The notes under the pieces are model-generated. The model was not told the DNA's origin, did no database searches, and saw nothing but the letters and a program-made list of their open reading frames with translations. A stretch of 64,000 nucleotides of DNA from positions 3,680,290 through 3,744,289 of the forward strand of contig CAXXLO010000002.1 of the NCBI GenBank assembly GCA_963664085.2, read 5' to 3'. The position numbers and the translations under genes are program-made. The stretch comes from Caldilineaceae bacterium. GTDB taxonomy: Bacteria > Chloroflexota > Anaerolineae > Caldilineales > Caldilineaceae. Below are positions 4,562-39,301 of the stretch, in pieces; the stretch's first letter is position 1; each line of letters begins with the position of its first letter.

Positions 4562-4818
4562 CCTGACCAGTGCCGGACGTGGACTTCTACTGCAACGGCT
4601 ACTCCCCCTGGCCCGGCGCAACGGACGCGCATCTGATGCGGCTCTCCATGTACGAGCGCACGCCCGACACGATGAACGTCAGACACGGCGCCCAGTTCAG
4701 CGTGTCCACGCGCCTGAAGGGATTCGCTCGCTACGGCGGGGCGTTTGATTTCCTGGGCGAGGGCCACTTTTTCGGACAGATCGGCGAGATTCGCATTTCG
4801 TCCATCAAGAGGTACTGA
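4562..4818 (+). pseudogene. Orphan fragment of a beta-propeller paralogue (no N-terminus)
   Basis: The 109 bp at 4562..4670 equal 5564..5672 (inside the 4845..6257 gene) except for 2 nt. A divergent tail then runs to a stop at 4816..4818. The fragment starts 8 nt after the HNH stop. Confidence 0.6.
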
Positions 4819-4844
4819 CCTTTTCGGAAGCCATTTTCGGTCCA

Positions 4845-6257
4845 ATGAGGAGAAAAATCGTGAGAAACTGGGGTCTTGGCCGCGGGAAATGGGTGTTTGT
4901 CGACTGGATTGGCGTGGAACCGGGCTACGGTACGGAGTGGGGCGGCGCAGTTAGCGAGGGCTGGAGCGTTCCACATGGGATAACGCTCAAAGTCCACGAG
5001 CCCACGGTAGATCCCTCGCCGGTGATCGTTGCCGACCGGCCCTGGGAGCAGGGCTATATATCTCCGTACTCGACGTTTCTTGAGGATGGAGGGACGCTCC
5101 GGTGCTGGTACGAAAACGGCGGCGGAATCGGCTATGCCGAGTCGCACGACGGCGTCGAATGGGAGAAACCGAACCTGGGCCTTCAGGCGTGGAACGGGTC
5201 GACCGACAACAACCTGATCGACATTAACCGTCACGGCCACGGCATCTTTATCGATCCCGCATCCGCCCCGTCCGAACGGTACAAAATGGTCAGCTGCCAC
5301 TGGACCGAGACCGAGCGTAAGGTCCTTGGCGCCATTTCCGCGGACGGCCTGCACTGGACGCCCATGGTCATGCCTATTATGGAGTATCAGCATGCCGACA
5401 CCCAGAACATTGGCCACTACGATGTGGAAAGGGCCGAATATATACTCTACACCCGCCAGATGGATGGGAAGTCGAACCGCCGCGGCGTCAACCCTGTGGC
5501 AACGGACAGCTTTCGGCGCTTTGAAAAGTCCGTACCGGTCTTGGAGAACAGTCCACTGGACGCGCCGGACGTGGATATCTACTGCAACGGCTACTCCCCC
5601 TGGCCCGGCGCAACGGACGCGCATCTGATGCGGCTCTCCATGTACGAGCGCACGCCCGACACGATGAACGTCCATCTGGCCACCAGCCGCGACGGCATCG
5701 CCTGGCACAGGCCCCAGGGCCGTAACGCCTGGATCGAAACGGTGCCATCCGCCCAGGGAGCATACAAGACGGTCTATGCCTGCGCCGGGGTTGTGCCGAC
5801 GGGCGCGGGGGAGTGGTCCACGTACGTTGGCGTGAACCGGATGTTGCACAACGAACCGGTGGAACGGAGGACGGGCGCGCCGGGCGAGTCGGGGCTGGTA
5901 CGCGCGGCGGTGCGCGAGGACGGGTTCGTCTCGGTTTCCAGCCGGGGGCGCGGCGGCTTCTGGACGGTTCCTTTCGAGCTGAACTCGGATTCGATCGGCA
6001 TCAATGCGGATACCCTTTATTCCGGCTTCCTGCGCTGCCAGATCCTGTCCTCCAGTCCCGGAGACGTCGGCAGCGACACTCGGTTCATCCACACCATCGA
6101 GGGCTACACGCTTGAAGAGTGCCAGCCGATAGTCGGGAATCAGATTGACGCTCCTCTAACGTGGAACGGAAGCGCCGACTTGAGCCAACTGCGGGGCCAG
6201 ACAGTCCGCCTCAGGTTTGACTTGTACAAGGCTGATCTGTACGCAATAAAGTTCTAA
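4845..6257 (+). CDS. Beta-propeller glycoside-hydrolase-like protein, paralogue 1 (function unknown)
   Basis: 470 aa. It has a blade motif GYAESHDGVEWEKPNLG and a C-terminal beta-sandwich-like tail (EDGFVSVSS...LRFDLYKADLYAIKF) shared with 7424, 12791 and 43206. Confidence 0.75.
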   Translation: MRRKIVRNWGLGRGKWVFVDWIGVEPGYGTEWGGAVSEGWSVPHGITLKVHEPTVDPSPVIVADRPWEQGYISPYSTFLEDGGTLRCWYENGGGIGYAESHDGVEWEKPNLGLQAWNGSTDNNLIDINRHGHGIFIDPASAPSERYKMVSCHWTETERKVLGAISADGLHWTPMVMPIMEYQHADTQNIGHYDVERAEYILYTRQMDGKSNRRGVNPVATDSFRRFEKSVPVLENSPLDAPDVDIYCNGYSPWPGATDAHLMRLSMYERTPDTMNVHLATSRDGIAWHRPQGRNAWIETVPSAQGAYKTVYACAGVVPTGAGEWSTYVGVNRMLHNEPVERRTGAPGESGLVRAAVREDGFVSVSSRGRGGFWTVPFELNSDSIGINADTLYSGFLRCQILSSSPGDVGSDTRFIHTIEGYTLEECQPIVGNQIDAPLTWNGSADLSQLRGQTVRLRFDLYKADLYAIKF

Positions 6258-6289
6258 CTGCCAGACAAATCGATCTGCCAGACAAATCG
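6258..6289. repeat. Two direct copies of CTGCCAGACAAATCG (17-bp period)
   Basis: Copies at 6258..6272 and 6275..6289, directly after the stop codon at 6255..6257. Confidence 0.8.
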
Positions 6290-6407
6290 CTGAGCGGAGC
6301 GGGGGACGGAAGCAAGCGTTCCTTCATGCACCCGCGGGACATGCTTGACCCTCAATCCCAGATTGTATACACTTCCGTGGAAAGACTGTGGACCAGCACT
6401 TTGACAA

Positions 6408-6455
6408 TGAAAACAAAGTGACACTGAAAACAGAGTGACGCTGAAAACAAAGTGA
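6408..6455. repeat. Three tandem 17-bp units with core TGAAAACARAGTGA, just upstream of a PhyH gene
   Basis: Cores at 6408..6421, 6425..6438 and 6442..6455. The array ends 14 nt before ATG 6470. Confidence 0.8.
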
Positions 6456-6469
6456 GGGACTGAACGACC

Positions 6470-7372
6470 ATGCGATCAATGACCGTTGCAGACGGGACGA
6501 AGGTCACGATGTCGGGGCACGAGCTTGTTTTTGGCGAGAATATTTTTGCGCCGCGTGACGCGAACGACATCGCAGGGGACATGGCGGCGCTGCGCGCCAG
6601 GATCGAGGAGGACGGCTACCTGTTGATTCGCGATTTTTACGACCGCGATGCAGTTATGGCCGCCCGCGCAGACATTCTCTCCTATCTGGCTGAGGAGGGC
6701 TGCCTGGATCCGGAGGCACCACCTGAAGAGGGTGTAATTGGTCCCGGAAACGAAGGCGCGGCGCTGCGCCACGAGGTTGTCGTCAACATGCACGCGTACC
6801 TGCGGGTGGTCAATTCGGAGCGGGTCATGGCATTCTTCGAGGCGTTTCTCGGCGGCCCGACTTTGACACTGGACCACAAGTGGCCGCGGGCGGTGAGGCG
6901 GGCCCACAGCACGGGCGCACACTACGACGTCGTGTTCATGGGCGCAGGCACAAAGGCGCTATACACGGTGTGGACGCCCCTGGACGATCTGTCACTCGAA
7001 ATGGGACCGCTGGCCTTCTGCCCGGGGTCCAACAAGCTGGACGTCCTGCGCCGCACTTACGGGACCGCCGACGCCCACAATGACGTGACCGACGGCCACC
7101 TCAGCCGCAACCCCCTTGAGCTGATCGAGAAGTTCGGTGTCAAGTGGTCGTCGACGCCGTTTGGCGCGGGCGACGTCATTATCTTCGGCATGTACTTTCT
7201 GCACGGCTCCCTCGACAACGTCTCCAACCGCTACCGACTCAGCACGGACAACCGCTACCAGCTGGCCTCCGAACCGGTCGACGAACGCCACATGGGACAA
7301 CATCCCGACCAGATTCCCAAGGCCGAAAACCGCAAGACCATGGCCGAGATGCGCGAAAAGTGGGGAATTTGA
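6470..7372 (+). CDS. Phytanoyl-CoA dioxygenase (PhyH) family Fe(II)/2-oxoglutarate oxygenase
   Basis: 300 aa. It has an HxD motif (STGAHYDVVF), YTVWTPLDD, GPLAFCPGS and a distal His (FLHGS). Confidence 0.8.
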   Translation: MRSMTVADGTKVTMSGHELVFGENIFAPRDANDIAGDMAALRARIEEDGYLLIRDFYDRDAVMAARADILSYLAEEGCLDPEAPPEEGVIGPGNEGAALRHEVVVNMHAYLRVVNSERVMAFFEAFLGGPTLTLDHKWPRAVRRAHSTGAHYDVVFMGAGTKALYTVWTPLDDLSLEMGPLAFCPGSNKLDVLRRTYGTADAHNDVTDGHLSRNPLELIEKFGVKWSSTPFGAGDVIIFGMYFLHGSLDNVSNRYRLSTDNRYQLASEPVDERHMGQHPDQIPKAENRKTMAEMREKWGI

Positions 7373-7423
7373 ACCGGCCTAGACTGACATTAACAACTTT
7401 TCTTACAGGGACTCCATTGCGCC

Positions 7424-9067
7424 ATGACCGTTCCCGAGCCCAAGAGCCGCAGCGAGCAACGCGACATTCAACAGAAGACCGACGCCATCTTGCGCGGCGA
7501 GCGGCCCGTCGACAGGGACTACCCCTACATTCCCCCCGACTACGAGGTCCCGTTCCCGCACATCGGGACCGACAGACAGCTGTTTCTGGACAATTTCATT
7601 CTCGATCATCTTGACGGCGTCAAGAGGGAGCTGTGCGCGCCGCAGAAGGCACCCGAACCACTGCTCTCCTTTACGGACCTTCCATGGGAGCAGGTACAGT
7701 TCAACCCGGGCACGGCCGGCGTGGTCCACGATCCCGACGACGGGCTGTTCAAAATGTGGTACTGGCAGGGCCTGGCCGGCGAACCTTTCAACACCAGCCA
7801 GGTGCTCTGCTACGCTGAATCAAAGGACGCCCTCCACTGGGAGAAACCGCTGCGGGATGACTGTATCCCTTTTCAGGGCCATACCGCCACCAACATCGTA
7901 CACCCGGACGTCTCCCAGTCCGGGCTGGCACTGAACCACGACCGCAGCGACAGCGAGCGAAAGTACCTGCTCGTGAACTGGCCGCCGAAAACGGCAGCCA
8001 AGCGACCGCCCGGCAGCCCGCGCCTCTCCAGCGTCGACGCCTCGCCCGACGGCATTCACTGGCAGACGATCAGCGAAGAGAGCCGCCTGCCCCATCACCA
8101 CGAGCAGAAGATAATCTGGGACGAAGGCATACAGCGCTATATAGGCTACAGCCAGTACTCCCACCACCAGGATTTCCTGTACCGCAAACGTCAGATTGGC
8201 CGCCAGGAGAGCGCCGACTTCATCAACTGGTCGCCCAAGGAGGTGGTCCTGTCGGCAGACTGGGACGCCAAACTTCCGCCCGACATGGAGATGCACGACA
8301 TGTCTGTGCGCAAGGTCGGGGGCCTGTACATCGGCATAACGTCAGAGTTCCTGGCAGAACCGTTCTGGCAGGAACGGGAGGGCCGCAACTGGCGCGATCA
8401 GGCGTTCGCCCGGCTCGGCCTCTACACGAGCCGCGACGGCAGACGCTGGCAGCGCGCCGGCGGCCCCGGCCCCTGGGTGGATACCGGCGCGCCGGGCGAA
8501 CAGGACTACGGCTTCGCCTGCTTCACACCGGCCGGCGAGCTGGTCCACAACGGCAAGCTGGTCATCCCCTACAGCGCCAATCCCCAGAAGCAGAGCTGGC
8601 TGCAACAGGGACCGCCCACTCCACTCTATCCGCAAGAGGCGTACAGGCTTCAGCAGGAGGCATGGCACGCCCGCGAGGCGCTGCAGGACGGTCCCATTCC
8701 CAAACGAGCCGTGGGCGGACTGATCCTGCGCGAGGACGGCTGGGCAAAGCTCACCCCGGACTATGAGAGCGGCCAGGTCTACACCAAGCAGTTCGTCTTT
8801 GAAGGGGATGCGCTGCGCGTGAACGCCGACTGCAGCTACGGTTACGTGCGGGTCGAACTCCTCGACCCAACGTTCGCCCCCTACGAAGGTTTCTCAGCCG
8901 AGCTGTGCGACGCGCTCACCGGCGCGGCGGACGAAATCTGGCACACGGTCAGCTGGCAAGGCAAGAGCGATCTGCGCGCCCTGTGGAACAGGCCGGTACG
9001 CATCCGCTTCACCCTGCGTGAAGCCAGCATTTACGCTTTTCAGTTTTTCGAATCCATGTCAGAATGA
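7424..9067 (+). CDS. Beta-propeller glycoside-hydrolase-like protein, paralogue 2
   Basis: 547 aa. Motifs YPYIPPDYEVPFPHIGTDRQLFLDNFILD, CYAESKDALHWEKPL, GRQESADFINWSPK and FVFEGDALRVNADCSYGYVRVELLD are closely parallel to 12791..14506. Confidence 0.8.
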   Translation: MTVPEPKSRSEQRDIQQKTDAILRGERPVDRDYPYIPPDYEVPFPHIGTDRQLFLDNFILDHLDGVKRELCAPQKAPEPLLSFTDLPWEQVQFNPGTAGVVHDPDDGLFKMWYWQGLAGEPFNTSQVLCYAESKDALHWEKPLRDDCIPFQGHTATNIVHPDVSQSGLALNHDRSDSERKYLLVNWPPKTAAKRPPGSPRLSSVDASPDGIHWQTISEESRLPHHHEQKIIWDEGIQRYIGYSQYSHHQDFLYRKRQIGRQESADFINWSPKEVVLSADWDAKLPPDMEMHDMSVRKVGGLYIGITSEFLAEPFWQEREGRNWRDQAFARLGLYTSRDGRRWQRAGGPGPWVDTGAPGEQDYGFACFTPAGELVHNGKLVIPYSANPQKQSWLQQGPPTPLYPQEAYRLQQEAWHAREALQDGPIPKRAVGGLILREDGWAKLTPDYESGQVYTKQFVFEGDALRVNADCSYGYVRVELLDPTFAPYEGFSAELCDALTGAADEIWHTVSWQGKSDLRALWNRPVRIRFTLREASIYAFQFFESMSE

Positions 9068-28223: not shown

Positions 28224-29693
28224 ATGGCCAGAGTCACTTCCGAGGAAAGCACAGTCGTTCAGGACGGCGTCAGCCGCCGCAGTTTCCTGAGGAGCACAGC
28301 CGCAGTCGCCGGGCTCGCCCTCGCCACCAGCGCGTGCGTAGCTGCCGGCCCCGAAAGCGCCGGCGACATGGCAGCGCCCTCAGCAGAACCCGTAGACATC
28401 CAGATCTGGTGGCGGATCAACCCCACCACAGAGGGCGTCATCCAGGTCTTCCAGGAGCAGCATCCCGACATCACGATTTCGCTCGGCGACCTCGGTGAGG
28501 CGGTCTACGGCACTCCCAAATACGTGACCGCGGTCGCCGCGGGCAAGGGACCGGACGTCTCCTACCAGAATCGCCATACTTTCCGCCAGTTCGCCTCCCG
28601 CAACCTCTACCGTCCCATCGAAGACCTCCTGGAGAGGGACAACCTCGACAAGGGCAACTTCATGGCCGGGCCCATCGCCGACCTCACCTGGCAAGGCACG
28701 CTCTATGGGCTGCCCCACACCGCGGGGACGCGCTACTTCTTCTGGAATCGCAGCCACTTTGAAGAGGCCGGCCTCGATCCCGACGTTGGTCCCGAAACGT
28801 GGGACGACATCATGGAGATGGCTCCGCAACTGAATAAGGTCGAGGGGGACAAGATCGTCCGTTACGGCTTCCTCCCCCACTTCCCGCCCGGTCTTTCGGA
28901 CCAGCTGCTCATCTACGCCATGGAGAACGGCGGCGTCAGCCAGTCTGAGGATGGGCGAACGAACCTCATCAACACAGCGCCATGGGTCGAGGCCCTTGAG
29001 TGGTGCGTGAATATAATCGACGAGTTCGGCGGCGGCAACGCTGCGGCCTCCTCCTTCATGGAGGGCTTCGCCGGCCAGCCGGTCGATCCCTTTGCCCAGG
29101 GCCAGGTCTCCATGTGCTCCTACGGCAACTGGATGATCGGCCGCTACGCCAAGTTCCCCGACCTCGACTACGACGGCACAGGCCTCATGCCGGTCTCGGC
29201 CGCGAATGAAGGCGCGCAGGTCAACTGGTCCTGCGGCTGGACCTTCGTCATCGACCCCAATACCGAGCTCGTCGAACAGGGTTGGGAATTCCTGAAGTGG
29301 GTGATCAGCGAGAAATACGTGCGCGCCGCTGGGACCGTCGGCCTCGAGCTCGAAAAGGCCGAATGGGCGCGTCAGCAGCTGCCCGGCGAACCGATCTTCG
29401 CGCCAACGCCGCCCGTCTACCAGCCAGCCATGCAGTTCATGCTGGACGAGTACTACTCCGTCCTGCCCGAACGCCAGAAGATTATGATGCAGAGATACCT
29501 CGACTCTGAGACCTTCTCCGTTGGCTGCGGCCAGATCGCCGGCCTCGCCGCCGCCGAACTCTGGATCGGTTTCAAGAACGCCTGGGAGTCCGCCCTCACC
29601 AAGAAGCAGACACCGCAAGAGGCGCTGGACGCCTCCCATGCCGACGTACAGAAGGCGCTCGACGCCGCCTGGGAGAATCTCGAATCCTCCTAG
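28224..29693 (+). CDS. ABC transporter substrate-binding lipoprotein (sugar type, family 1)
   Basis: 489 aa with a Tat/lipoprotein signal RRSFLRSTAAVAGLALATSAC and AAGGAGAGG before the ATG. Two permease genes follow. Confidence 0.85.
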   Translation: MARVTSEESTVVQDGVSRRSFLRSTAAVAGLALATSACVAAGPESAGDMAAPSAEPVDIQIWWRINPTTEGVIQVFQEQHPDITISLGDLGEAVYGTPKYVTAVAAGKGPDVSYQNRHTFRQFASRNLYRPIEDLLERDNLDKGNFMAGPIADLTWQGTLYGLPHTAGTRYFFWNRSHFEEAGLDPDVGPETWDDIMEMAPQLNKVEGDKIVRYGFLPHFPPGLSDQLLIYAMENGGVSQSEDGRTNLINTAPWVEALEWCVNIIDEFGGGNAAASSFMEGFAGQPVDPFAQGQVSMCSYGNWMIGRYAKFPDLDYDGTGLMPVSAANEGAQVNWSCGWTFVIDPNTELVEQGWEFLKWVISEKYVRAAGTVGLELEKAEWARQQLPGEPIFAPTPPVYQPAMQFMLDEYYSVLPERQKIMMQRYLDSETFSVGCGQIAGLAAAELWIGFKNAWESALTKKQTPQEALDASHADVQKALDAAWENLESS

Positions 29694-29708
29694 GCCCGGT
29701 AAAGAACT

Positions 29709-29746
29709 GTCAGAACCGGACGGCATCCCGCCGTTCCGGTTCTGAC
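29709..29746 (+). other. Intercistronic hairpin between the binding-protein and permease genes
   Basis: GTCAGAACCGGACGG pairs with CCGTTCCGGTTCTGAC (15 bp, one bulge). There is no U-tract, so it is more likely an mRNA-stability or attenuation element than a full terminator. Confidence 0.45.
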
Positions 29747-29783
29747 CCCTCCCCTGTCCGCACAGCAAATCGGGACGGCCGCC

Positions 29784-30698
29784 ATGACCACCGCCCAACC
29801 CAAACCCCGGCTCACCAACGCCGCCAGAGAGGCTCTGACCTGCTATCTGTTTCTCCTCCCCTGGGGGATCGGCTTCCTGGCTTTCGTGATTGGCCCGGTC
29901 GTCGCCTCCTTCGTGTTGGGCTTCATGGACTATGAGATCGTAACACCGGCCCGCTGGGTCGGGCTGGCCAACTACATCGAGCTCTTTACGGACGACGACC
30001 GCTTTCTGATGTCGATGGGCAACACGCTCTACTATGTCCTCGTCTTCGTGCCGCTCCACGTCGTTGTCGCGACACTCCTGGCCCTCTTGCTCAACCAGAG
30101 GGCGCGCGGGATCGCAGTGTACCGCACTCTCTTCTATGTGCCGTCGATCGTGCCCATCGTCGCCGGCGCCATCCTCTGGGTCTGGATTCTGCAGCCCGAG
30201 TGGGGTCTGATCAACTCGACCCTGGCGTTGGTCAATATAGACGGACCACTGTGGCTGGCGTCGCTCACGTGGTCGAAACCGGCCCTCATCCTGATGGCGC
30301 TGTGGGGCTCCGGCGCCGCCATGATCATTGTCCTCGCCGGCCTCCAGGGTGTGCCCCAACATCTCTATGAGGCCGCGGAGATCGACGGCGCCAACCGCTG
30401 GCAGCGTTTCCAGCACGTGACGATACCGATGCTAAGTCCCACGCTCTTCTTCATTCTCGTTCTCAGCGTCATCGCGTCCTTCCAGGTCTTCACGACCGCC
30501 TACGTAATGACCGGCGGCGGGCCGGCCGAGTCGACGCTTTTCTACATGCTCTATCTGTACCGCAGGGCCTTCGTCCTCCTGGACATGGGATACGCGGCCA
30601 GCATGGCGTGGATCCTGTTCGTGGCCGTTCTCGCGCTTACACTGGTGCAGTTCAAGCTGGCAAGCCGTTGGGTCTACTACGAAGCGGAGCAAAGTTAA
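29784..30698 (+). CDS. Sugar ABC transporter permease (MalF/UgpA-like)
   Basis: 304 aa, multi-TM, with the EAA loop YEAAEIDGANRWQRFQHVTIPML. Confidence 0.9.
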   Translation: MTTAQPKPRLTNAAREALTCYLFLLPWGIGFLAFVIGPVVASFVLGFMDYEIVTPARWVGLANYIELFTDDDRFLMSMGNTLYYVLVFVPLHVVVATLLALLLNQRARGIAVYRTLFYVPSIVPIVAGAILWVWILQPEWGLINSTLALVNIDGPLWLASLTWSKPALILMALWGSGAAMIIVLAGLQGVPQHLYEAAEIDGANRWQRFQHVTIPMLSPTLFFILVLSVIASFQVFTTAYVMTGGGPAESTLFYMLYLYRRAFVLLDMGYAASMAWILFVAVLALTLVQFKLASRWVYYEAEQS

Positions 30699-30702
30699 CG
30701 CC

Positions 30703-31596
30703 ATGTTACGCGACGAGGCCATCGGACCCCAACCCAGCCGCGAAGTCCATCCCAGCGCAAAAGGGCAACCCTTTCGCCGCCTGCTTGAACTCATCGGCAC
30801 ACAGCTGCTTCTGGTATTCGGCGCAGTTATTTTCGCGCTTCCCTTTGTCTGGATGGTCAGCACTTCGCTCAAGGCGGACCGCCAGATCTTCGCATTCCCG
30901 CCGATCTGGGTGCCCGATCCCTTCATCTGGGGCAACTTTCCGGCCGTCTTCATCTATGCCCCGATGCACCTCTATTTCTTCAACACGCTGCTGATCGCGC
31001 TGGCCCACGTCTTCGGCGCGGTATTTACCTGCTCGCTCGCCGCATACGCCTTCTCGCGGCTGCGCGCGCCGGGCCGCGACGTCATCTTCATGGTCATGGT
31101 CAGCCAGATGATGATCCCTTACATCGTGATGCTGGTGCCGCTCTATCTCCTCTTTGCGGAACTGGAGTGGATCGACACGTTCTATCCTCTGACCATTCCC
31201 GCAATGCTCGGCACACCGTTCTACATTTTCATGCTCCGACAGTTCTTTCTCACCATCCCAATGGAGCTTGAGGAGGCGGCCATTATCGACGGCGCCAGCC
31301 GACTGCGCATCTGGTGGACCATCATTCTGCCGCTCGCCAAGCCGGCCCTGGCAACCGTCGCCATCTTCAGCTTCATGTTCGCCTGGAACGACTTCACCGG
31401 CCCGTTGATCTTTTTGAACACGCGCGAAAAGTTTACGCTCTCGCTCGGCCTCCAGGCGTTTATGTTCGAGCGCCGCACGATGTGGGGTCCGCTGATGGCG
31501 GCGTCGACGATGATGATCGTGCCGATTCTTGTGGTGTTCTTTCTGGCGCAGAAGCATTTTATACAGGGGATCGCGTTGACGGGGATCAAGGCGTAG
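30703..31596 (+). CDS. Carbohydrate ABC transporter permease (MalG/UgpE-like)
   Basis: 297 aa with the EAA loop LEEAAIIDGASRLRIWWTIILPLAKP. Confidence 0.9.
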   Translation: MLRDEAIGPQPSREVHPSAKGQPFRRLLELIGTQLLLVFGAVIFALPFVWMVSTSLKADRQIFAFPPIWVPDPFIWGNFPAVFIYAPMHLYFFNTLLIALAHVFGAVFTCSLAAYAFSRLRAPGRDVIFMVMVSQMMIPYIVMLVPLYLLFAELEWIDTFYPLTIPAMLGTPFYIFMLRQFFLTIPMELEEAAIIDGASRLRIWWTIILPLAKPALATVAIFSFMFAWNDFTGPLIFLNTREKFTLSLGLQAFMFERRTMWGPLMAASTMMIVPILVVFFLAQKHFIQGIALTGIKA

Positions 31597-31626
31597 GTCA
31601 TTGGTCCTTGCTGTGGAGGTTAAGCC

Positions 31627-32952
31627 GTGAATATCACCCAATTCACAATCGAGGAAGTCCGCTGTTTCGCCGAACGCCAGACCTTTGAAATTCGGCCTCT
31701 GACCTTCCTTGTCGGCGAAAACAGCACCGGCAAGACGACAGCGCTGGGCTGCTTCCAAGTATTGGCAAATTTCGTCGACAAGGGCGAAGTCGACTTTAAC
31801 GCTCACTCTTACTCTATGGGAACATTTAGGGACATTGTTAGGAGGAGCAGGAAGCCCGAAAAGAGATTCATCCTTGGCTTCTCGATTGAAGTTGACGGTG
31901 AGAACGTCGATCTCTCGGCCGAGTTCATCGAAAAGGCGAATGGAATCGAACCTACCGTAGGGGCAACTTCCATCAGTTTCGTCGACGGTGAGATCTTCTT
32001 TGAAATCAGACAGACTGCGCAAAGGGAAAGGGAATCGACTTTGAGAAAGGGAAAGGCCCGAAGCTATAGTGTCATTTATGGGTCGTTCCCTTCTACGGGG
32101 GTATTCCAACCTTTCTTCAATCTGAGTAGTCTGGCCAGAGTGGGCCAAGCTGAGGAATTTGACGACGAAATGCCGCTGGCGAAATTCTTAGGAGAGAAGT
32201 ATGACAACAACAAGAGTCTTTATCGGCTAGGAGTCAGCGGCAACTTGAACGCGCTGAGTACAGCTCCAATCCGATCCAGGCCAAGACGTACTTACGATCC
32301 CACCAGGGATGTCCTAGATCCAGAGGGTAGCAATATTCCAACTTTTCTTATGGGCTTAGTTGTCTCAAACACTAAGGAATGGGAGAAACTGAGTCAGCAA
32401 CTCTCTGCATTCGGCAAAAGTTCAGGACTTTTTAGCAGAATTAGTGTCAAGAACCTTGGAAGTTCCAAAATCGGACCTTTTCAATTGAGGGTCAAAGTGA
32501 GAGGCCCAACAGTAAGTTTTTCCGATGTTGGATACGGTGTAAGCCAAATTTTTCCCATTCTGGTCAACATTTTGGACGAGACCCTAATGCAAGGCCGTTC
32601 GGACGTTAATGCAATGCCAGTTTATCACCTGATGCAACAGCCTGAAGTCCACTTGCACCCAAGGGCGCAAGCGGAGTTTTCGTCTCTGCTGGTTCGGCTG
32701 GCAAACCTAGGAAGTCAAACGTTCCTAGTGGAGACGCACAGCGACTACATGGTAGACCGCGCACGCATCGAAATCATGAAGGGCAATATCAGCAAGGATG
32801 ATGTTTCACTGATTTACTTGGAGCCAAAGCGAAACACCGTCAAAGTACACAACATCTCTTTCGACGAAAAGGGGAACATGATCGGCGTGCCGCCCCATTT
32901 CAGAGAGTTCTTCCTGCTCGAATCAGATCGGCTGATGGGCTTTGCGGACTGA
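31627..32952 (+). CDS. ABC-type (AAA_15/AAA_21, DUF3696-like) ATPase, defence-associated
   Basis: 441 aa; the GTG start follows GGAGG. It has Walker A GENSTGKT, signature-like SDVGYGVSQIFPIL, Walker B/D-loop YHLMQQPEVHLHP and H-loop LVETHSDY. GC is low relative to flanks, by eye. Confidence 0.75.
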   Translation: MNITQFTIEEVRCFAERQTFEIRPLTFLVGENSTGKTTALGCFQVLANFVDKGEVDFNAHSYSMGTFRDIVRRSRKPEKRFILGFSIEVDGENVDLSAEFIEKANGIEPTVGATSISFVDGEIFFEIRQTAQRERESTLRKGKARSYSVIYGSFPSTGVFQPFFNLSSLARVGQAEEFDDEMPLAKFLGEKYDNNKSLYRLGVSGNLNALSTAPIRSRPRRTYDPTRDVLDPEGSNIPTFLMGLVVSNTKEWEKLSQQLSAFGKSSGLFSRISVKNLGSSKIGPFQLRVKVRGPTVSFSDVGYGVSQIFPILVNILDETLMQGRSDVNAMPVYHLMQQPEVHLHPRAQAEFSSLLVRLANLGSQTFLVETHSDYMVDRARIEIMKGNISKDDVSLIYLEPKRNTVKVHNISFDEKGNMIGVPPHFREFFLLESDRLMGFAD

Positions 32953-32955
32953 TAC

Positions 32956-33417
32956 ATGTGCATTATTCTGGACGCAAACTGTCTCGGCGATTTTCGAAAC
33001 AGATCCAATCAAGATATGCAGCCGGTTCGCACATGGTTGGACGAGAGAAACGGGAAAGTCGCATTCTCGGACACTGAAACGTTTCGAAGCGAGTGGAAGA
33101 GGGCCGGCCTGGACTACAGGGCGCTGAACCGCGCCGGTCAACTCAAGTTGATACCGGGAGAGGAAGTCCTGGCCCAACAAGAGAATCTGACTGGCGAACT
33201 TGAATCAGACGATCCCCATGTAATTGCGTTGGCCCTTGTCGCAGAGATTAAGGTTCTGGTCGTCCAACGTCAACCCGATGAACCGCTCACAGGAGGAAGA
33301 CGGAGGGCAAGGGGAGGGGACCCCGCATTGCAGAGGGATTTCAAGAGATTGGCTCGCGGCAAGGTCTATGTGACATCAGGCCATAAGCATCTTCTGACCA
33401 AAGATACCTGCCCCTGA
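32956..33417 (+). CDS. Small PIN-like domain protein (putative nuclease partner of the ATPase)
   Basis: 153 aa. It starts 3 nt after the ATPase stop. MCIILDANCL (first acidic residue) and ESDDPHVIALALVAEIKVLVV look like PIN strands; the assignment is tentative. Confidence 0.45.
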   Translation: MCIILDANCLGDFRNRSNQDMQPVRTWLDERNGKVAFSDTETFRSEWKRAGLDYRALNRAGQLKLIPGEEVLAQQENLTGELESDDPHVIALALVAEIKVLVVQRQPDEPLTGGRRRARGGDPALQRDFKRLARGKVYVTSGHKHLLTKDTCP

Positions 33418-34659
33418 TCTTTTCGCGCAGGGAACATGGCTACCGTCACACCCGCAACACAAGGATACAGCGCAACATGGCGCGCAGAAAGAGGAAGACC
33501 CGCAAGGAAATCACAAACTACGCTCACACCGATGAGCAGCGCGTCAACAACCCGCCCGTCGGCCTAGTTACGCCGGACACCGACAAGGACGCGGGCAAAA
33601 AGAGCTACGCCTACGATCCCCATCTCGACCCGCAACTCGTATGGGCCGGGAAGGCCGAGCGCACATCCTTTGAACTGCCGACCGTATCACTGCACGTCCA
33701 CGAACGCATTGACCCGCGTACGATCGTCGAGGTCGTCCGCAGGCAAAATGGTGGCGCCGACGACCCGCAACTCTCGCTCTTCTCGCTGCCCGAGGAGAAC
33801 CCGCCCCTGCGCCAGGCCATCGAGTTCTACCAGCACAGCCACAACTGGACCAACCGCCTGCTCGCTGGCGACAGCCTGCTGGTGATGAACAGCCTGATCG
33901 AAAAGGAGGGCATGGCCGGCAAGGTGCAGATGGTCTATATCGACCCGCCCTACGGCATCAAGTACGGCTCCAACTTCCAGCCCTTCATCAATATGCGCGA
34001 AGTAACCGACGGCAAGGACGCTGACCTGACCGCCGAGCCGGAGCAGATCCGCGCCTTCCGCGATACCTGGGAACTGGGCATCCATTCATATCTGCGTTAC
34101 TTGCGAGATCGCCTCCTGTTGGCGCGCGAACTGTTGACCGAGTCCGGCAGCGTGTTCGTGCAGATTGGGGATGAGAACGTGCATCTGGTGTCGTTGTTGC
34201 TGGATGAAATTTATGGTCGCGAAAATCGCATCGCAACGATTTCGTTTGCTACAACCAGCGGCAGTTCAGCCAAGCTTCTTCCCGAAGTGTCAGATTATCT
34301 CCTGTGGTATGCCAAGGATGCGAAAGGAGCAAAGTATCGCCAGCTTTTTGAGACGTTGAGCCGCAGGGAACTGATTGAATATATGTCTTCTTACGCGAAA
34401 GTTGAACTACCAGACGGTTCAACGCGTAAGCTCACCACAGAAGAGCGATTCGGCCCCGACAGGCATCTACCGCAAGGTGCCAGGTTGTACATGAGTATCG
34501 GACTTAATTCCCAAGGCGCATCGACCACCGGCCGATCTGAACCTTACATCTATCAGGGCACGGTATGGGAATGTGGGCATCGAAGGCAGTGGTCGATATC
34601 AAAGGAGGGTCTGGACCGGCTCGCAGAACTTGGGCGTCTTGACGCTGCCGACAGCCTTA

Positions 34660-35520
34660 GAAGCTGTTTGAAAAGGGTCAATTGGGAGCCAGCCGGCGTA
34701 CCATGAGACGAATCATAGCGATATGGATAAAGGCGACACTGCTTTCGGGCAGTCGTTCATAGTCTTTGCCAAGGCGACGATTGAGGCCGAGCCAAGCGAA
34801 GGTGCGTTCCACAACCCAACGACGGGGCAATACGGAGAATCCTTTTTGCTCTTGCGGGCGGAGGACAGGTTGAAGGCGGAAGCGAAAGCGCTGCGCAACC
34901 CATCTCTGCAACGAGCCGCGATAGGCGCCGTCAACCCAGATGAGACGCAGTTTCTGGCCGAAACCGCAGCCTCGTCTGAGCAGTTGCCGTGCCCCATCGC
35001 GGTCAGGCAGGTCAGCAGCGCTGACCAGGACGGCCAATACGAGTCCCATCGTATCGACGAGAAGATGCCGTTTTCGTCCTGTGATGCGTTTGCCCCCATC
35101 GTAGCCTCGCACACCTGTCGGTGTATGGCCGGTCTTGACTGTCTGACTATCGATACTGCCAGCCGTTGGATGCTTGTGTCGCCCGACTCGTTGACGGACC
35201 CGCACTCTGAGCATGTCGTGCAACCGTCGCCACGTGCCATCGTCTCGCCATTTCCTGAAGTAGGTGTAGACGCTCTGCCACGGCGGAAAGTCGCTCGGCA
35301 GCATCCGCCACTGAATGCCACCCACAGTCAGGTAGAGAATGGCATCAACGACCAGACGCATATCCAGGCTGCGGGGGCGTCCGCCCGGTTTGGCTGCAGG
35401 AATCAGATGCTGGATAATAAACCACTGGCTGTCAGTCAAATCTGTTGGGTATCGTTTTGTTTTCACAAAAACTACGTATACCACAATTTGGCCGACAGCC
35501 TTTACTTTTCAAACAACCTC
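34660..35520 (-). mobile_element. IS5-family insertion sequence (IS427/IS1031-like), 861 bp, apparently intact
   Basis: The terminal IRs are GAAGCTGTTTGAAAAG and (reverse complement) GAGGTTGTTTGAAAAG. A 3-bp TTA duplication lies at 34657..34659 and 35521..35523. It holds a single transposase ORF. Confidence 0.9.
34678..35484 (-). CDS. IS5 family DDE transposase
   Basis: 268 aa with KRYPTDLTDSQW, SIDSQTVKT, HLLVDTMGL, WVDGAYRG and VVERTFAWLGLNRRLGKDYE. The true start may be the GTG at 35466. Confidence 0.9.
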   Translation of the reverse strand: MVYVVFVKTKRYPTDLTDSQWFIIQHLIPAAKPGGRPRSLDMRLVVDAILYLTVGGIQWRMLPSDFPPWQSVYTYFRKWRDDGTWRRLHDMLRVRVRQRVGRHKHPTAGSIDSQTVKTGHTPTGVRGYDGGKRITGRKRHLLVDTMGLVLAVLVSAADLPDRDGARQLLRRGCGFGQKLRLIWVDGAYRGSLQRWVAQRFRFRLQPVLRPQEQKGFSVLPRRWVVERTFAWLGLNRRLGKDYERLPESSVAFIHIAMIRLMVRRLAPN

Positions 35521-37030
35521 TTAGAATGAAACGCTACGAAGAAGAAATACCAGGACGGAGAATCAACAATATCTGGCATCGCCAGATGTATCCCAGCGAT
35601 AAGACTTACGTTGTGCAAACCGCCAAGAGCGTCATTTCTCGCTGCCTTCTTATGAGCACCGACCCAGGCGACTTGGTATTCGACCCGACCTGCGGCAGCG
35701 GCACGACCGCATACGTCGCCGAGCAGTGGGGCCGCCGCTGGATCACCTGCGATACCTCCCGCGTCGCGCTCACGCTTGCCAAGCAGCGCCTCATGACGGC
35801 GACCTTTGACTACTACGAACTCGCCCATTCCGATGAAGGCGTGGGCAGCGGATTTCGATATAAGACGATTCCCGTCGTATCCGCACGCGTATTGGCATAC
35901 GATGAACCGCAAGCGCAAGAGACTCTTTACGACCAACCGCTGGTTGACCGGTCCAAGACCCGCGTCACCGGTCCATTCACCGTAGAGGCCGTGCCCGCGC
36001 CATCGGTTCGCTCGGTCGATGAGATATTGGAGGACAGGCCGCAACCGGCCGACGCCTCCATTGCCCGAGCCGGAGAGACGCGGCGGCAGGGTGACTGGCG
36101 CGACGAACTGCTGAAAACCGGCATTCGCGCCAAGGCCGGTCAGCGCATCCGCTTTGCCCGCCTGGAACCGCTCCCCGGTGCCCGCTATCTCCACGCCGAA
36201 GGCGAAACCCTGCCCAACGCCGACGGTGCGGACGGATTCCGCGACAATGGCGCGGCCGCGGATGCCCAGCGCATCGTCGTCTCCTTTGGCCCGGAGCACG
36301 CGCCGCTCGAACAGCGCCAGGTTGAGCAGGCGATCGCGGAGTCCCAGACACTGGTTCCCAGGCCTAAAGTCGTCGTTTTCGCCGCCTTTCAGTTCGACCC
36401 CGAGGCGGCCAAGGATATCGACGAAACCAGGTGGCCCGGCGTCGCGCTGCTGAAAGCACAGATGAACGCCGACCTGCTGACCGACGACCTGAAAAAGAAA
36501 CGCGCCAGCAACGAGAGCTTCTGGCTGATCGGCCAGCCCGATGTAATCCTGGAGAAGATCGCAAAGGGCAAGGACAAGGGCAACTATCGCGTCTCCGTCC
36601 ACGGCTTCGACTACTACAACACCAAGACCGGCAACGTCGAATCCGGCGGCCAGGACAAGATCGCCGTCTGGATGCTGGACCCCGACTACGACGGCCGCAG
36701 CCTCTTTCCCTGCCAAGTCTTCTTTCCCATGGCCGGCGCCAAGGATGGCTGGGCGCGCCTCGCCAAAAACCTGAAAGCGGAGATAGATGAAGATCGGATC
36801 GAAGCCTACCGCGGCACCGTCTCGCTGCCCTTCGCGCCGGGCGAACACCGCCGCATCGCCGTCAAGATCGTGGACGACCGCGGCATCGAAAGCCTGAAGG
36901 TGGTGGAGGTGGAGTGAAGGATGCAGTGGCGCGAATCCACACAAAGAACACATCTGCGCTCGCGACTTGTGCAGAGTAGTGGCAGATTGACCGCTGTTCT
37001 TTGAACAATAAGTTGTAGAGGCACATCACA

Positions 37031-37876
37031 GTGACCAGACCACTGAAGTCTAAAGCCATAGAGCGCCTTCGGAAAGCACTGAATGAAATCCCTGAGTTGG
37101 GAAAACTTTCGACCGACTCGCCGGAATTCAAGAAGTGGCAAAGAAACACCGCAGTCGCCATTGGAAGAACGTTTGGGACAGAAGGAACCCAAGTTAGCGA
37201 GTTCGATAATATCTCCTTCTTCGCAAGAAGTGTCCCCCCTCCAATTTTGAAGTCTGAGCTTACAGGTTGGCGCGTTAAACGAGAAAACGAACGCCAGCAG
37301 AGTTATGTGAAGGGCTTGGATTCATCTGCCTCGTTACTTGAGTCTATGATCGAGGAGATCGAGGAGTACTGGGAAGATGATAACAAGGAGCAAGGCTCAT
37401 TCAGCCTTCCAAAAGACGAACGGATTGACGCAACGAAAGTTTTCGTTGTTCATGGAAGGGATGATAGTACCAGACAGGCAGTGGCGAGATTTATCGAAAA
37501 GTTGGATCTCGAACCAGTGATACTGGATGAGCAGGCGGATAAAGGCCGCACGATCATCGAGAAGTTCGAGCAAGAGGCGGACGAAGTCAGGTTCGCTGTG
37601 ATCCTGTTGACACCGGATGATGAGGGTAGGCTTCGATCCGAAGAAGCCGAGCTCAAACCGCGCGCAAGACAGAACGTGATCTTCGAACTCGGGTACTTCC
37701 GGAGAGCCCTAGGCCCAAATCGAGTCTGCGCCTTGAAAAAAGGAGAAGTAGAAACGCCATCCGACTATGATGGAGTCATTTACATTCCACTCGACGATGC
37801 CGGGGGATGGAAGATGGGACTCATCAGAGAGCTAAAGGCAGCCGGGTTCGATGTAGATGCGAATCGTGTCTTGTAA
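37031..37876 (+). CDS. TIR-like (PF10137 / Cap12-PycTIR type) domain protein with a ~135-aa N-terminal helical domain
   Basis: 281 aa. The C-domain KVFVVHGRDD...GRTIIEKFEQEADEVRFAVILLTPDD...PRARQNVIFELGYF...ETPSDYDGVIYIPLDDAGGWK tracks the family consensus as I remember it almost residue for residue. Confidence 0.8.
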   Translation: MTRPLKSKAIERLRKALNEIPELGKLSTDSPEFKKWQRNTAVAIGRTFGTEGTQVSEFDNISFFARSVPPPILKSELTGWRVKRENERQQSYVKGLDSSASLLESMIEEIEEYWEDDNKEQGSFSLPKDERIDATKVFVVHGRDDSTRQAVARFIEKLDLEPVILDEQADKGRTIIEKFEQEADEVRFAVILLTPDDEGRLRSEEAELKPRARQNVIFELGYFRRALGPNRVCALKKGEVETPSDYDGVIYIPLDDAGGWKMGLIRELKAAGFDVDANRVL

Positions 37877-37897
37877 TCGTGTTTGAGGAAAAGCGCC

Positions 37898-39301
37898 ATG
37901 CAATCAGCCAACGAGCCTGAGGCGGCAACCGTGAAATTCCGGTTCAAGAATCTCGGCCCCGTAAAGGAGGCCGAGTTGGAACTGGGCGATCTCACCATCA
38001 TCGCCGGTCGCAACAACACGGGCAAGACATACCTGGCGTATACGCTCTACGGGTTCTTGAAAATGTGGGCGAGAATCCGACTTGAGAAAGTTAAAGTCCC
38101 GCGAACACAGCTAGAAGATTTCATTGGCAAGGTCTTGGAGAACAGGCGAGGTGAAAAGTGCGAAATCGATCGGGATTCTCTTATCCAGGAGCGCAAGTCA
38201 GTGATTCGAGAGGTGTCATCAAGTTATTCGAAGGATGCTCTGTCCGGAGTATTCAATTCGCCAGACAGTGCATTTGAAGGGGCCTCGTTCGAAGTCGAGC
38301 TTAGTAATGAACTTCCCGAAGGGTTGGTCTTCCAAGAAGAAGGACCGGTCTATTCGATATACTATGACGGGACTGAAGTTCAAATGACCTATGATAGGGC
38401 AGAAGAGTACCGCCTTTCGGAACTATGGGTTTCGGATGTCTATCTTCAGTTTTTGTTTCCGGAACTCTCCTTTGACCCTTTCGTGCTATCTGCGGAGCGA
38501 TTTGGCATTTCACTCTTCTACAAAGAGCTTGATCTAAACAAGAACCGTATGGTTGAGTTGCTATGGCAGAAGGCAGATGCCACAAACAAAGAGTATTGGG
38601 AGTCCGTTTCTCCATACTTGATGTTAGATATATTTGCCGGACGCTACGCACTTCCCATAAAGGACAACATAAACTATACGAGAAGTATCTCCTATCTCGA
38701 AAAGGAAAAAAGCGAGATATTGGAAGACAAGATTTTCGACGGTATAAAGGACATGATGGAGGGTTACTACCGTAGCGCCGGCGACGACATTCGGTTTAGA
38801 TCGAAAGCGCGCAAAGAAGGCACATTCAACATTCCTCTGCATCGTGCATCCTCGTCCGCACGCGGACTCTCTGATCTCTACTTCTTCCTGCGCCATGTAG
38901 TCAAGAAGAATCATCTTCTCATCATTGACGAGCCGGAAAGCCATCTCGACACCGCCAACCAGATTGAGTTTGCCCGCCTGCTGGCGCGTCTGGTGCGGGC
39001 TGGCGTCAAGGTGCTGATCACCACGCACAGTGACTACATTATCAAGGAGATCAACAACCTCATCATGTTGAGCCAGTCCTTTGAAGACAAGAACAAGATC
39101 GTCAAAAAGCTGAAGTACAAAAAGAATGATTTCTTGCCGGCGGAATCCGTCCGGGCGTATGTAGCGGAAGACAGTTCCCTGACCCCCTGTAAAATCGACG
39201 AGTTTGGCATTGACATGCCGTTTTTCGACAAGACGATCAACGATATCAATCGGGCATCGAACGAACTGGCAACTCGAGTGGCGCGCGAGGGAGTAGAGTG
39301 A
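37898..39301 (+). CDS. ABC-type (AAA_15/AAA_21-like) ATPase
   Basis: The ORF track starts at TTG 37883; ATG 37898 follows GAGGA. It has Walker A GRNNTGKT, Walker B LLIIDEPESHLD, H-loop LITTHSDY and a ~280-aa insert between Walker A and the signature region. Confidence 0.75.
   Translation: MQSANEPEAATVKFRFKNLGPVKEAELELGDLTIIAGRNNTGKTYLAYTLYGFLKMWARIRLEKVKVPRTQLEDFIGKVLENRRGEKCEIDRDSLIQERKSVIREVSSSYSKDALSGVFNSPDSAFEGASFEVELSNELPEGLVFQEEGPVYSIYYDGTEVQMTYDRAEEYRLSELWVSDVYLQFLFPELSFDPFVLSAERFGISLFYKELDLNKNRMVELLWQKADATNKEYWESVSPYLMLDIFAGRYALPIKDNINYTRSISYLEKEKSEILEDKIFDGIKDMMEGYYRSAGDDIRFRSKARKEGTFNIPLHRASSSARGLSDLYFFLRHVVKKNHLLIIDEPESHLDTANQIEFARLLARLVRAGVKVLITTHSDYIIKEINNLIMLSQSFEDKNKIVKKLKYKKNDFLPAESVRAYVAEDSSLTPCKIDEFGIDMPFFDKTINDINRASNELATRVAREGVE

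Follow-up and report, generated by a model that had tools for sequence, protein, structure and literature searches.

A conserved ABC ATPase-PIN gene pair at the edge of a Caldilineaceae defence island is probably an anti-phage module of HEC-03 layout

Analyzing a 64,000-nucleotide stretch of the genome of a Caldilineaceae bacterium (contig CAXXLO010000002.1, positions 3,680,290 to 3,744,289; this whole stretch is called the window below), we found that two adjacent genes, encoding a 441-aa ABC-type ATPase and a 153-aa protein of PIN fold, form a conserved two-gene unit. This pair probably serves in anti-phage defence as a self-contained module of two genes, belonging to the 'ABC ATPase plus effector nuclease' class and laid out like HEC-03 (Hma-embedded candidate 3), and, judged by its sequence, it is a divergent new branch of this known ABC ATPase plus PIN design. 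An initial annotation, made from the letters and a list of open reading frames (ORFs), had picked out the pair as an ATPase followed by a PIN-like protein; its coordinates, the 3 nt between the two genes, and the 30 nt separating them from a preceding ABC permease gene all agree with the ORF list and the sequence. The elements of the locus are as follows.

31627-32952, plus strand: ATPase gene, 441 aa, GTG start (ORF list); ABC-type ATPase, NsnB/HEC-03A-like, DUF3696-type class (Pfam, PADLOC, AlphaFold2 (AF2), Foldseek, BLASTP)
32956-33417, plus strand: PIN gene, 153 aa, ATG start (ORF list); stand-alone PIN-fold protein, putative Mg-dependent RNase effector (AF2, Foldseek, Pfam matches of relatives)
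31615-31619, plus strand: Shine-Dalgarno-like GGAGG, 7 nt 5' of the ATPase GTG, read from the sequence

Using a scan of one genome per species (185,579 species), we obtained 331 loci with a relative of the PIN protein and fetched the best 80 of them. A homologue of the ATPase was encoded immediately upstream of the PIN gene, in the same order, at 80 of these 80 loci, as the earlier expectation of conserved neighbours required, and for the 75 loci with two full-length genes the gap between them ranged from -1 to 4 nt. Since order and spacing recur throughout the related loci, the pairing is not due to chance. The same arrangement was present at three remote relatives found by exact sequence and in all six members of a distant paralogous subfamily from Caldilineaceae. 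Pairwise distances among the ATPases and among the PIN proteins were correlated, with a Mantel r of 0.60 that was reached by none of 999 permutations. Across the 80 loci no third conserved gene accompanies the pair; the commonest neighbour family, a thiamine-pyrophosphate enzyme encoded on the opposite strand, occurs at 24 of them. One Poribacteria locus (L078, 4679-8233) contains two divergent ATPase-PIN modules in tandem:

4679-5995: ATPase of the first module
6001-6423: PIN protein of the first module
6495-7811: ATPase of the second module
7817-8233: PIN protein of the second module

The 153-aa protein had no direct match in Pfam, NCBIfam, PADLOC, or PHROGs, and because PDB sequence searches with the protein and two profiles yielded chance-level matches only, a comparison at the level of the fold was needed. 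In its AF2 model (pLDDT 85, pTM 0.81), strands and helices alternate as they do in a PIN domain. The top PDB match in Foldseek was the toxin VapC4 of Pyrococcus horikoshii (5h4g_B; probability 1.0, TM 0.58), and further VapC toxins, FitB, and the PIN-type RNase P HARP ranked after it. Among 30 relatives, 11 match Pfam PIN and 3 match the PIN-like DUF4411, and two distant relatives exceed the curated Pfam PIN cut-off (25.6 and 24.5 versus 23.6 bits). The PIN-like reading of the small protein was thereby upheld, by the VapC matches and the retained acidic residues, over the non-nuclease fold that the initial annotation had named as its refutation; the suggested PIN or DUF4411 assignment held for the relatives just mentioned and not for the protein itself, which has no Pfam match.

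A word-based search for the PIN family found 63 clusters, and a HMMER scan of 1.84 billion representatives returned at least 1,694 clusters (formed at 50% identity, and a lower bound) at E <= 1e-3, 962 of them at E <= 1e-10. The best 150 relatives are without exception stand-alone proteins of about 80-185 aa, with no extra domain. In 38 diverse members, D86, H88, D122, D128, and C152 are invariant, L125 is invariant alongside D122 and D128, and C2, D6, and E46 are conserved in at least 90%. The segments MCIILDANCL and SDDPHVIALALVAEIKVLVV, which had first drawn attention to the protein, carry the best-conserved residues of the family. The putative catalytic positions and a clade-specific insertion map as follows.

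32971-32973, plus strand: Asp6, first PIN acidic residue, at the end of strand 1 (MCIILD); conserved in at least 90%, modelled strand 2-5
33091-33093, plus strand: Glu46, second PIN acidic residue, in helix 41-50; invariant in alignment A1, conserved in at least 90% in alignment A3
33211-33219, plus strand: Asp86-Pro-His88, with Asp86 as third PIN acidic residue; S-D-D-x-H-h-h-A-L-A motif, before helix 87-96
33319-33339, plus strand: Asp122...Asp128-Phe, with Asp122 as fourth PIN acidic residue; D-x-x-L-x-x-D-F motif, after strand 4
33265-33318, plus strand: clade-specific Arg-rich insertion, aa 104-121, QRQPDEPLTGGRRRARGG, just before Asp122; pLDDT ~57

The 18-residue Arg-rich insertion is present in PIN forms of 153-179 aa and absent from forms of 135-143 aa. 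Several further features of the family were noted in passing. It has a near-invariant N-terminal Met-Cys and a C-terminal Cys-Pro with an invariant Cys (window 32959-32961 and 33409-33414), and the invariant His88 lies beside the predicted active-site residue Asp86. A zinc site made of Cys2, His88, His143, and Cys152 was considered and set aside, as PIN topology should place Cys2, where strand 1 begins, far from His88 by Asp86. Two relatives, P0223 and P0257, weakly match the first ~125 positions of the 501-position PADLOC model PDC-M11A (4e-5 and 2e-3), and this sequence match suggests that PDC-M11A carries an N-terminal PIN domain of related type.

The ATPase matches Pfam AAA_15 (3e-19) and AAA_21 (1e-13), so that the label DUF3696/AAA_15-21 first given to it was right in its second part, whereas DUF3696 (PF12476) gave no Pfam match at E <= 0.1. 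Upon modelling the protein from 32 homologues (AF2, pLDDT 80, pTM 0.84), Foldseek returned Rad50/SMC heads and PtuA of Septu and retron systems with E values of 1e-12 to 1e-9. The C-terminus is modelled as a hairpin plus helix (aa 393-436), across which the NsnB profile of PADLOC aligns. The motifs of the ATPase are as follows.

31714-31737, plus strand: Walker A / P-loop GENSTGKT, aa 30-37 (family alignment)
31990-32256, plus strand: variable middle region, ~aa 122-210, inside the insert between the two halves of the ABC core (alignment, model)
32524-32547, plus strand: signature-like motif DVGYGVSQ, aa 300-307, in which GxG replaces the canonical SGG
32629-32661, plus strand: degenerate Walker B LMQQPEVHLHP, aa 335-345, with Gln337 at the position of the Walker B acid and Gln338 at that of the catalytic glutamate
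32728-32748, plus strand: H-loop region VETHSDY, aa 368-374 (family alignment)

GENSTGKT, QQPEVHLHP, and VETHSDY, the motifs on which the initial annotation relied, are present, with little or no variation among 77 homologues. The P-loop is identical in 76 of 77 family members and, up to a K[TS] ending, in 8 of 9 distant members, with L091 reading GENSSGKT; G302, Y303, G304, and Q307 are invariant, as are E369, T370, S372, and D373, and H371 is conserved in at least 90%. Unlike this ABC core, aa 122-210 have almost no position conserved in at least 90% of the 77 homologues; the middle region is modelled as beta strands followed by helices at lower pLDDT and is a candidate sensing surface. In canonical ABC ATPases, Asp-Glu ends the Walker B strand. 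Here, QQPE is invariant in 77 of 77 family members and in 9 of 9 distant members, the modelled Walker B strand (332-337) ends at Q337, and a profile alignment places QQPE opposite EEPE of the Thermus OLD nuclease 6p74. The protein retains the ABC fold, Walker A, and H-loop, but has Q-Q in place of the D-E dyad, as every family member does, and GYG rather than SGG as the signature. Because glutamine occupies both positions of the dyad, ATP hydrolysis by the ATPase is probably slow or absent, and this sequence change suggests that binding of ATP, rather than its hydrolysis, matters for the protein.

The order of the two genes is that of HEC-03 from Pseudomonas cichorii ATCC 10857 (WP_025259138.1 and WP_025259137.1), in which Payne et al. 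(2024; bioRxiv 10.1101/2024.01.29.577857) described an ABC ATPase of 461 aa, carrying a DUF3696 annotation, and behind it a VapC-like PIN protein of 157 aa, and for which they found that phage defence needs both genes. The same preprint reports that the HEC-03 strain was plated without isopropyl β-D-1-thiogalactopyranoside (IPTG) because of apparent toxicity, and states as open whether ATP hydrolysis or binding is required (bioRxiv 10.1101/2024.01.29.577857). The initial annotation could name no described system with a PIN-like partner; HEC-03 is such a system, and NsnC of Menshen (below) is predicted to be held by its ATPase through an inactive PIN-like domain. Whether the pair maps to an already named system, which had also been raised, is answered differently at two levels: it does so in architecture, to HEC-03, and does not as a sequence family.

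Both HEC-03 and the window pair consist of an ABC ATPase gene and a small PIN gene on the same strand that abut or overlap. The two ATPases have in common G-x-N-S-x-G-K-[ST], DVG(F/Y)GVSQ (DVGFGVSQ in HEC-03A and DVGYGVSQ in the window), x-Q-P-E-(I/V)-H-L-H-P, and E-[ST]-H-S, and both carry glutamine at the position of the catalytic glutamate. At Walker B, HEC-03A has EQ (EQPE) where the window family has QQ, and the overall identity is 22% (BLASTP, E 2e-12). The PADLOC model for the HEC-03 ATPase covers the C-terminal half only (residues 253-425; 3e-20, 70 bits), a weaker match than those to NsnB and PDC-M55A; the two ATPases are homologous, though a common family is doubtful. For the PIN proteins, we aligned 32 sequences from the HEC-03B family, whose 669 clusters come for the most part from Pseudomonas, Burkholderia, and metagenomes. 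In the profile alignment with the window PIN family, E46 pairs with E52 (invariant in HEC-03B), D86 with D110, and D122 with D129, while the window PIN profile against the single HEC-03B reference WP_025259137.1 reached a probability of 3%. These comparisons fit two separate families within the PIN superfamily. The hosts differ as well, the window family being found mostly in uncultured sponge-symbiont lineages and HEC-03 in Pseudomonas and Burkholderia. The conserved C-terminal Cys-Pro (Q-L-C-P-x-H-G-C) occurs also in the otherwise unrelated HEC-03B PIN family. We further noticed that the PADLOC-DB v2.0.0 model PDLC04148, named HEC-03B (458 positions), matches the ATPase, whereas in the preprint HEC-03A is the ATPase and HEC-03B the PIN protein; the letters are swapped.

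Menshen (NsnABC), which reportedly goes back to Millman et al. 2022, also pairs an ABC ATPase with a PIN-like domain, and NsnB was the best PADLOC match of the window ATPase (1e-39, 135 bits, residues 3-429). NsnB, too, deviates from the canonical motifs, having EN at Walker B and GxG in place of SGG (PMC12065111), and is predicted to clamp the N-terminal inactive PIN-like domain of NsnC between two C-terminal tails (PMC12065111). The pair might then be a remnant or minimal form of Menshen, comprising NsnB and a truncated NsnC, with NsnA lost or encoded elsewhere. This is very unlikely, given the differences. The Menshen inPIN domains all lack the D-E-D-D residues and NsnC has a separate C-terminal nuclease (PMC12065111), whereas the window PIN protein keeps its acidic residues and is a single domain, with no C-terminal effector domain added in any of the best 150 relatives. 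The NsnA partner (ParB/DUF262) is absent: no such gene is conserved beside the pair in the 80 loci, and over 180 kb separates the window from the three DUF262 genes that the source genome has. The score of 135 bits against NsnB is also far under that of a true member, as the PD-T4-4 ATPase in the window scores 365 bits against its own model. An identification of the pair as Menshen was rejected on the same grounds, namely the missing NsnA and a single-domain PIN protein with its acidic residues kept.

The defence systems PARIS and Septu pair their ATPases with other effectors: AriB of PARIS is a Toprim nuclease and PtuB of Septu an HNH nuclease. The window pair resembles both in joining an ABC ATPase oligomer to a small nuclease effector encoded next to it, and the ATPase model matches PtuA structures and the sequence matches AriA profiles (1e-22, PADLOC); it differs in having a PIN effector rather than Toprim or HNH, as well as in the inserts and C-termini of the ATPase. 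No significant sequence membership in PARIS or Septu was found for the pair, and the Septu/PARIS-like logic proposed at the outset is a reasonable reading of it. In the case of PDC-M55, the window ATPase is matched along its entire length by the PDC-M55A profile (2e-37). The PDC-M55 cassette comprises three genes from other families (Payne preprint, bioRxiv 10.1101/2024.01.29.577857, supplementary file 8), and its partner models gave no match to the window PIN protein in PADLOC; as only the ATPase profile of this cassette matches, it was rejected as the identity of the pair.

As the effector has a VapC-like PIN fold with the same acidic residues, we also weighed a toxin-antitoxin or addiction module, in which the PIN protein would be a VapC-like toxin that the ATPase merely neutralises, stabilising the locus with no role in phage defence. 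The tight translational coupling of the two genes speaks for such a module, as does the apparent toxicity for which the HEC-03 strain was plated without IPTG. Decayed copies in three genomes of the source genus bear on it, too: the PIN gene contains an in-frame TGA beside an intact ATPase at L092 (genome G051) and is frameshifted beside an intact ATPase at L094 (G031), the decay that would be expected of a toxic gene, while at L093 (G034) the PIN gene contains a TAG and the ATPase is reduced to its last ~100 aligned positions. VapBC-type systems, however, encode a small DNA-binding antitoxin upstream of the PIN toxin. In place of a VapB-type antitoxin, all loci here have a large ABC ATPase (441 aa in the window), whose conserved P-loop and variable insert give the sensor-ATPase layout of Septu, PARIS, and HEC-03. 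Moreover, addiction modules are common on plasmids, yet a plasmid collection yielded no copy of this one, and HEC-03 needed both genes for defence. We consider an addiction module improbable, and an anti-phage module the better account of the pair.

The distribution of the pair is confined to few groups among the best 80 loci, with 53 in Poribacteria, 14 in Caldilineaceae, 10 in Latescibacterota, and one each in Owenweeksia, Paracoccaceae, and an unclassified genome; nearly all of these genomes are metagenome-assembled. Poribacteria, Caldilineaceae, and Latescibacterota are typical sponge symbionts. Within the Caldilineaceae, 34 of 151 genomes have a PIN match, as do 23 of 35 genomes of the source genus, and the source genome holds a single copy of the pair. 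A quick tree of the concatenated ATPase-PIN pair mostly tracks taxonomic groups, with a few cross-phylum placements (L021, L023, L069). At 11 Caldilineaceae loci, the pair lies directly 3' of the same ABC importer, and compared with the window the importer proteins are 86-99% identical, the ATPases 52-60%, and the PIN proteins 40-70%. The ATPase and PIN alleles at this site form two deep clades, a pattern suggestive of replaced alleles or of very rapid divergence at a single site. The site itself, after an ABC sugar-importer operon (window 28224-31596), is a fixed insertion point of the module in at least 11 Caldilineaceae species; importer-site loci listed are L003, L005-L009, L037, L040, L048, and L075.

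These patterns also bear on a housekeeping function, in which the pair would be a lineage-specific RNA-processing unit with an ATP-regulated PIN RNase for the maturation of rRNA or tRNA. Some PIN enzymes (NOB1, HARP) are indeed maturation nucleases, the tree largely follows phylum boundaries, and many Poribacteria copies lie amid housekeeping genes. On the other side, presence is patchy even within one genus, pseudogenes and tandem divergent copies occur, codon usage is atypical for the genome, and the alleles diverge extremely at one fixed locus next to nearly identical importer proteins. We therefore hold a housekeeping role to be highly improbable; like the Menshen remnant and the addiction module, it is less well supported than a function in defence.

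The ATPase gene ends with TGA at 32950-32952, 3 nt before the ATG of the PIN gene at 32956, and begins 30 nt after the end of the ABC permease gene at 31596; the position of its GTG aligns with ATG or GTG in homologues at 76 loci. G+C content (GC), overall and at third codon positions (GC3), is 48.9% and 56% for the ATPase gene and 53.9% and 58% for the PIN gene, against 58-63% and 81-84% for the adjoining importer genes, so that the low GC claimed for the pair is real and the pair is compositionally foreign to the surrounding genes. Scans for promoters and terminators found no signal above chance at the locus; as the 30-nt gap before the ATPase gene contains no sigma-70-like promoter above chance, transcriptional read-through from the importer operon is possible.

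In line with the island-edge position first described, the pair is followed on its 3' side by a defence island with a type III mod gene split by an insertion sequence (IS), a PDC-S35 TIR protein, and a PD-T4-4 ATPase. The mod gene, a type III-like DNA methyltransferase gene (33477-36917), has halves that match PADLOC MTase_III at 9e-88 and 1.5e-67 and is split by an IS with a 268-aa transposase ORF on the minus strand (34678-35484). Within 37031-39301, the TIR-domain protein matches PADLOC PDC-S35 (2e-82) and the Pfam CAP12/Pycsar TIR family (2e-40), and 6 nt after its gene comes that of another ABC ATPase, which belongs to the PD-T4-4_A family (2e-109) and whose kinship with the ATPase of the PIN pair is confined to the ABC core. 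Two loci from other Caldilineaceae metagenome-assembled genomes, L001 (OZ242006.1) and L002, 4672-11463, carry a pair 98-99% identical to that of the window; mod, a TIR gene, and the gene of a PD-T4-4 ATPase come after it, and the fetched upstream flanks contain none of the importer genes. Their mod (70-94%), TIR (58-71%), and PD-T4-4 ATPase (64-66%) identities to the window are far below that of the pair, and the defence island is a mosaic. Among 55 immediate-neighbour clusters, 4 are type I specificity subunits, 2 are type ISP enzymes, and 1 is a DNA methylase, the remainder being housekeeping-like. Overall, low GC3, patchy presence, broken copies, restriction-modification neighbours, and the island show the pair to behave as an accessory, horizontally acquired element.

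A number of points count against an anti-phage module of HEC-03 layout. The defence role attributed to the window family is a prediction from its genes, most Poribacteria copies sit amid housekeeping genes rather than in defence islands, and no relatives were found in plasmid, phage, or IMG/VR collections. When PADLOC v2.0.0 was run, as had been proposed, it did not call the pair HEC-03: the ATPase is only a partial match to that system, and neither the window PIN protein nor any of 38 relatives has a PADLOC match to it. The profiles of the window PIN protein and HEC-03B align with an hhalign probability of 31% (E 5e-4), a homology at superfamily level only. In addition, the assignment of D6, E46, D86, and D122 to the D-E-D-D set of PIN enzymes is a predicted one, their spatial clustering being read from sequence and secondary structure only, and the QQ Walker B could signify that nucleotide binding is impaired altogether.

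The most likely mechanism, drawn from the architecture and from the precedents of HEC-03, Menshen, PARIS, and Septu, would proceed as follows. The ATPase would bind ATP through its intact P-loop, probably with slow or no hydrolysis; because Q-Q replaces the Walker B acid and catalytic glutamate, it would probably act as a nucleotide-dependent clamp or switch. A dimer or tetramer of the ATPase would keep the PIN protein inactive, most likely between its C-terminal tails, as in the NsnB-NsnC prediction, and its variable middle region may sense an infection cue, be it a phage protein, phage nucleic acid, or a change in the nucleotide pool. Upon this cue, the PIN enzyme would be released or switched on and, with a D-E-D-D set as in VapC-type RNases, may cut tRNA, rRNA, or mRNA, so that translation stops and the infection is aborted. 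A bolder version, which we regard as doubtful and offer as speculation, would make the ATPase a hydrolysis-dead sensor of ATP or the nucleotide pool, an 'E-to-Q trapped' ABC dimer serving as an immune switch, in which ATP holds the clamp shut on the PIN RNase until nucleotide depletion or a phage factor opens it; it would also make the family a lineage-enriched, rapidly diversifying defence, with divergent alleles at one fixed site, and a major immune component of sponge-symbiont bacteria.

Should the pair prove active, ABC-ATPase/PIN defence would no longer be limited to one tested Pseudomonas example but would take in a much larger group, whose closest PIN-family members (the best 80 of the 331 genome matches) belong almost entirely to uncultured sponge-symbiont lineages and which PADLOC-DB v2.0.0 does not model. 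The conserved QQ Walker B would provide a natural test of the question raised by the HEC-03 authors, whether hydrolysis is needed or ATP binding alone suffices. Finally, the inactive docking domain of PIN type in Menshen effectors may have originated from a stand-alone PIN protein such as this one, with intact catalytic residues.

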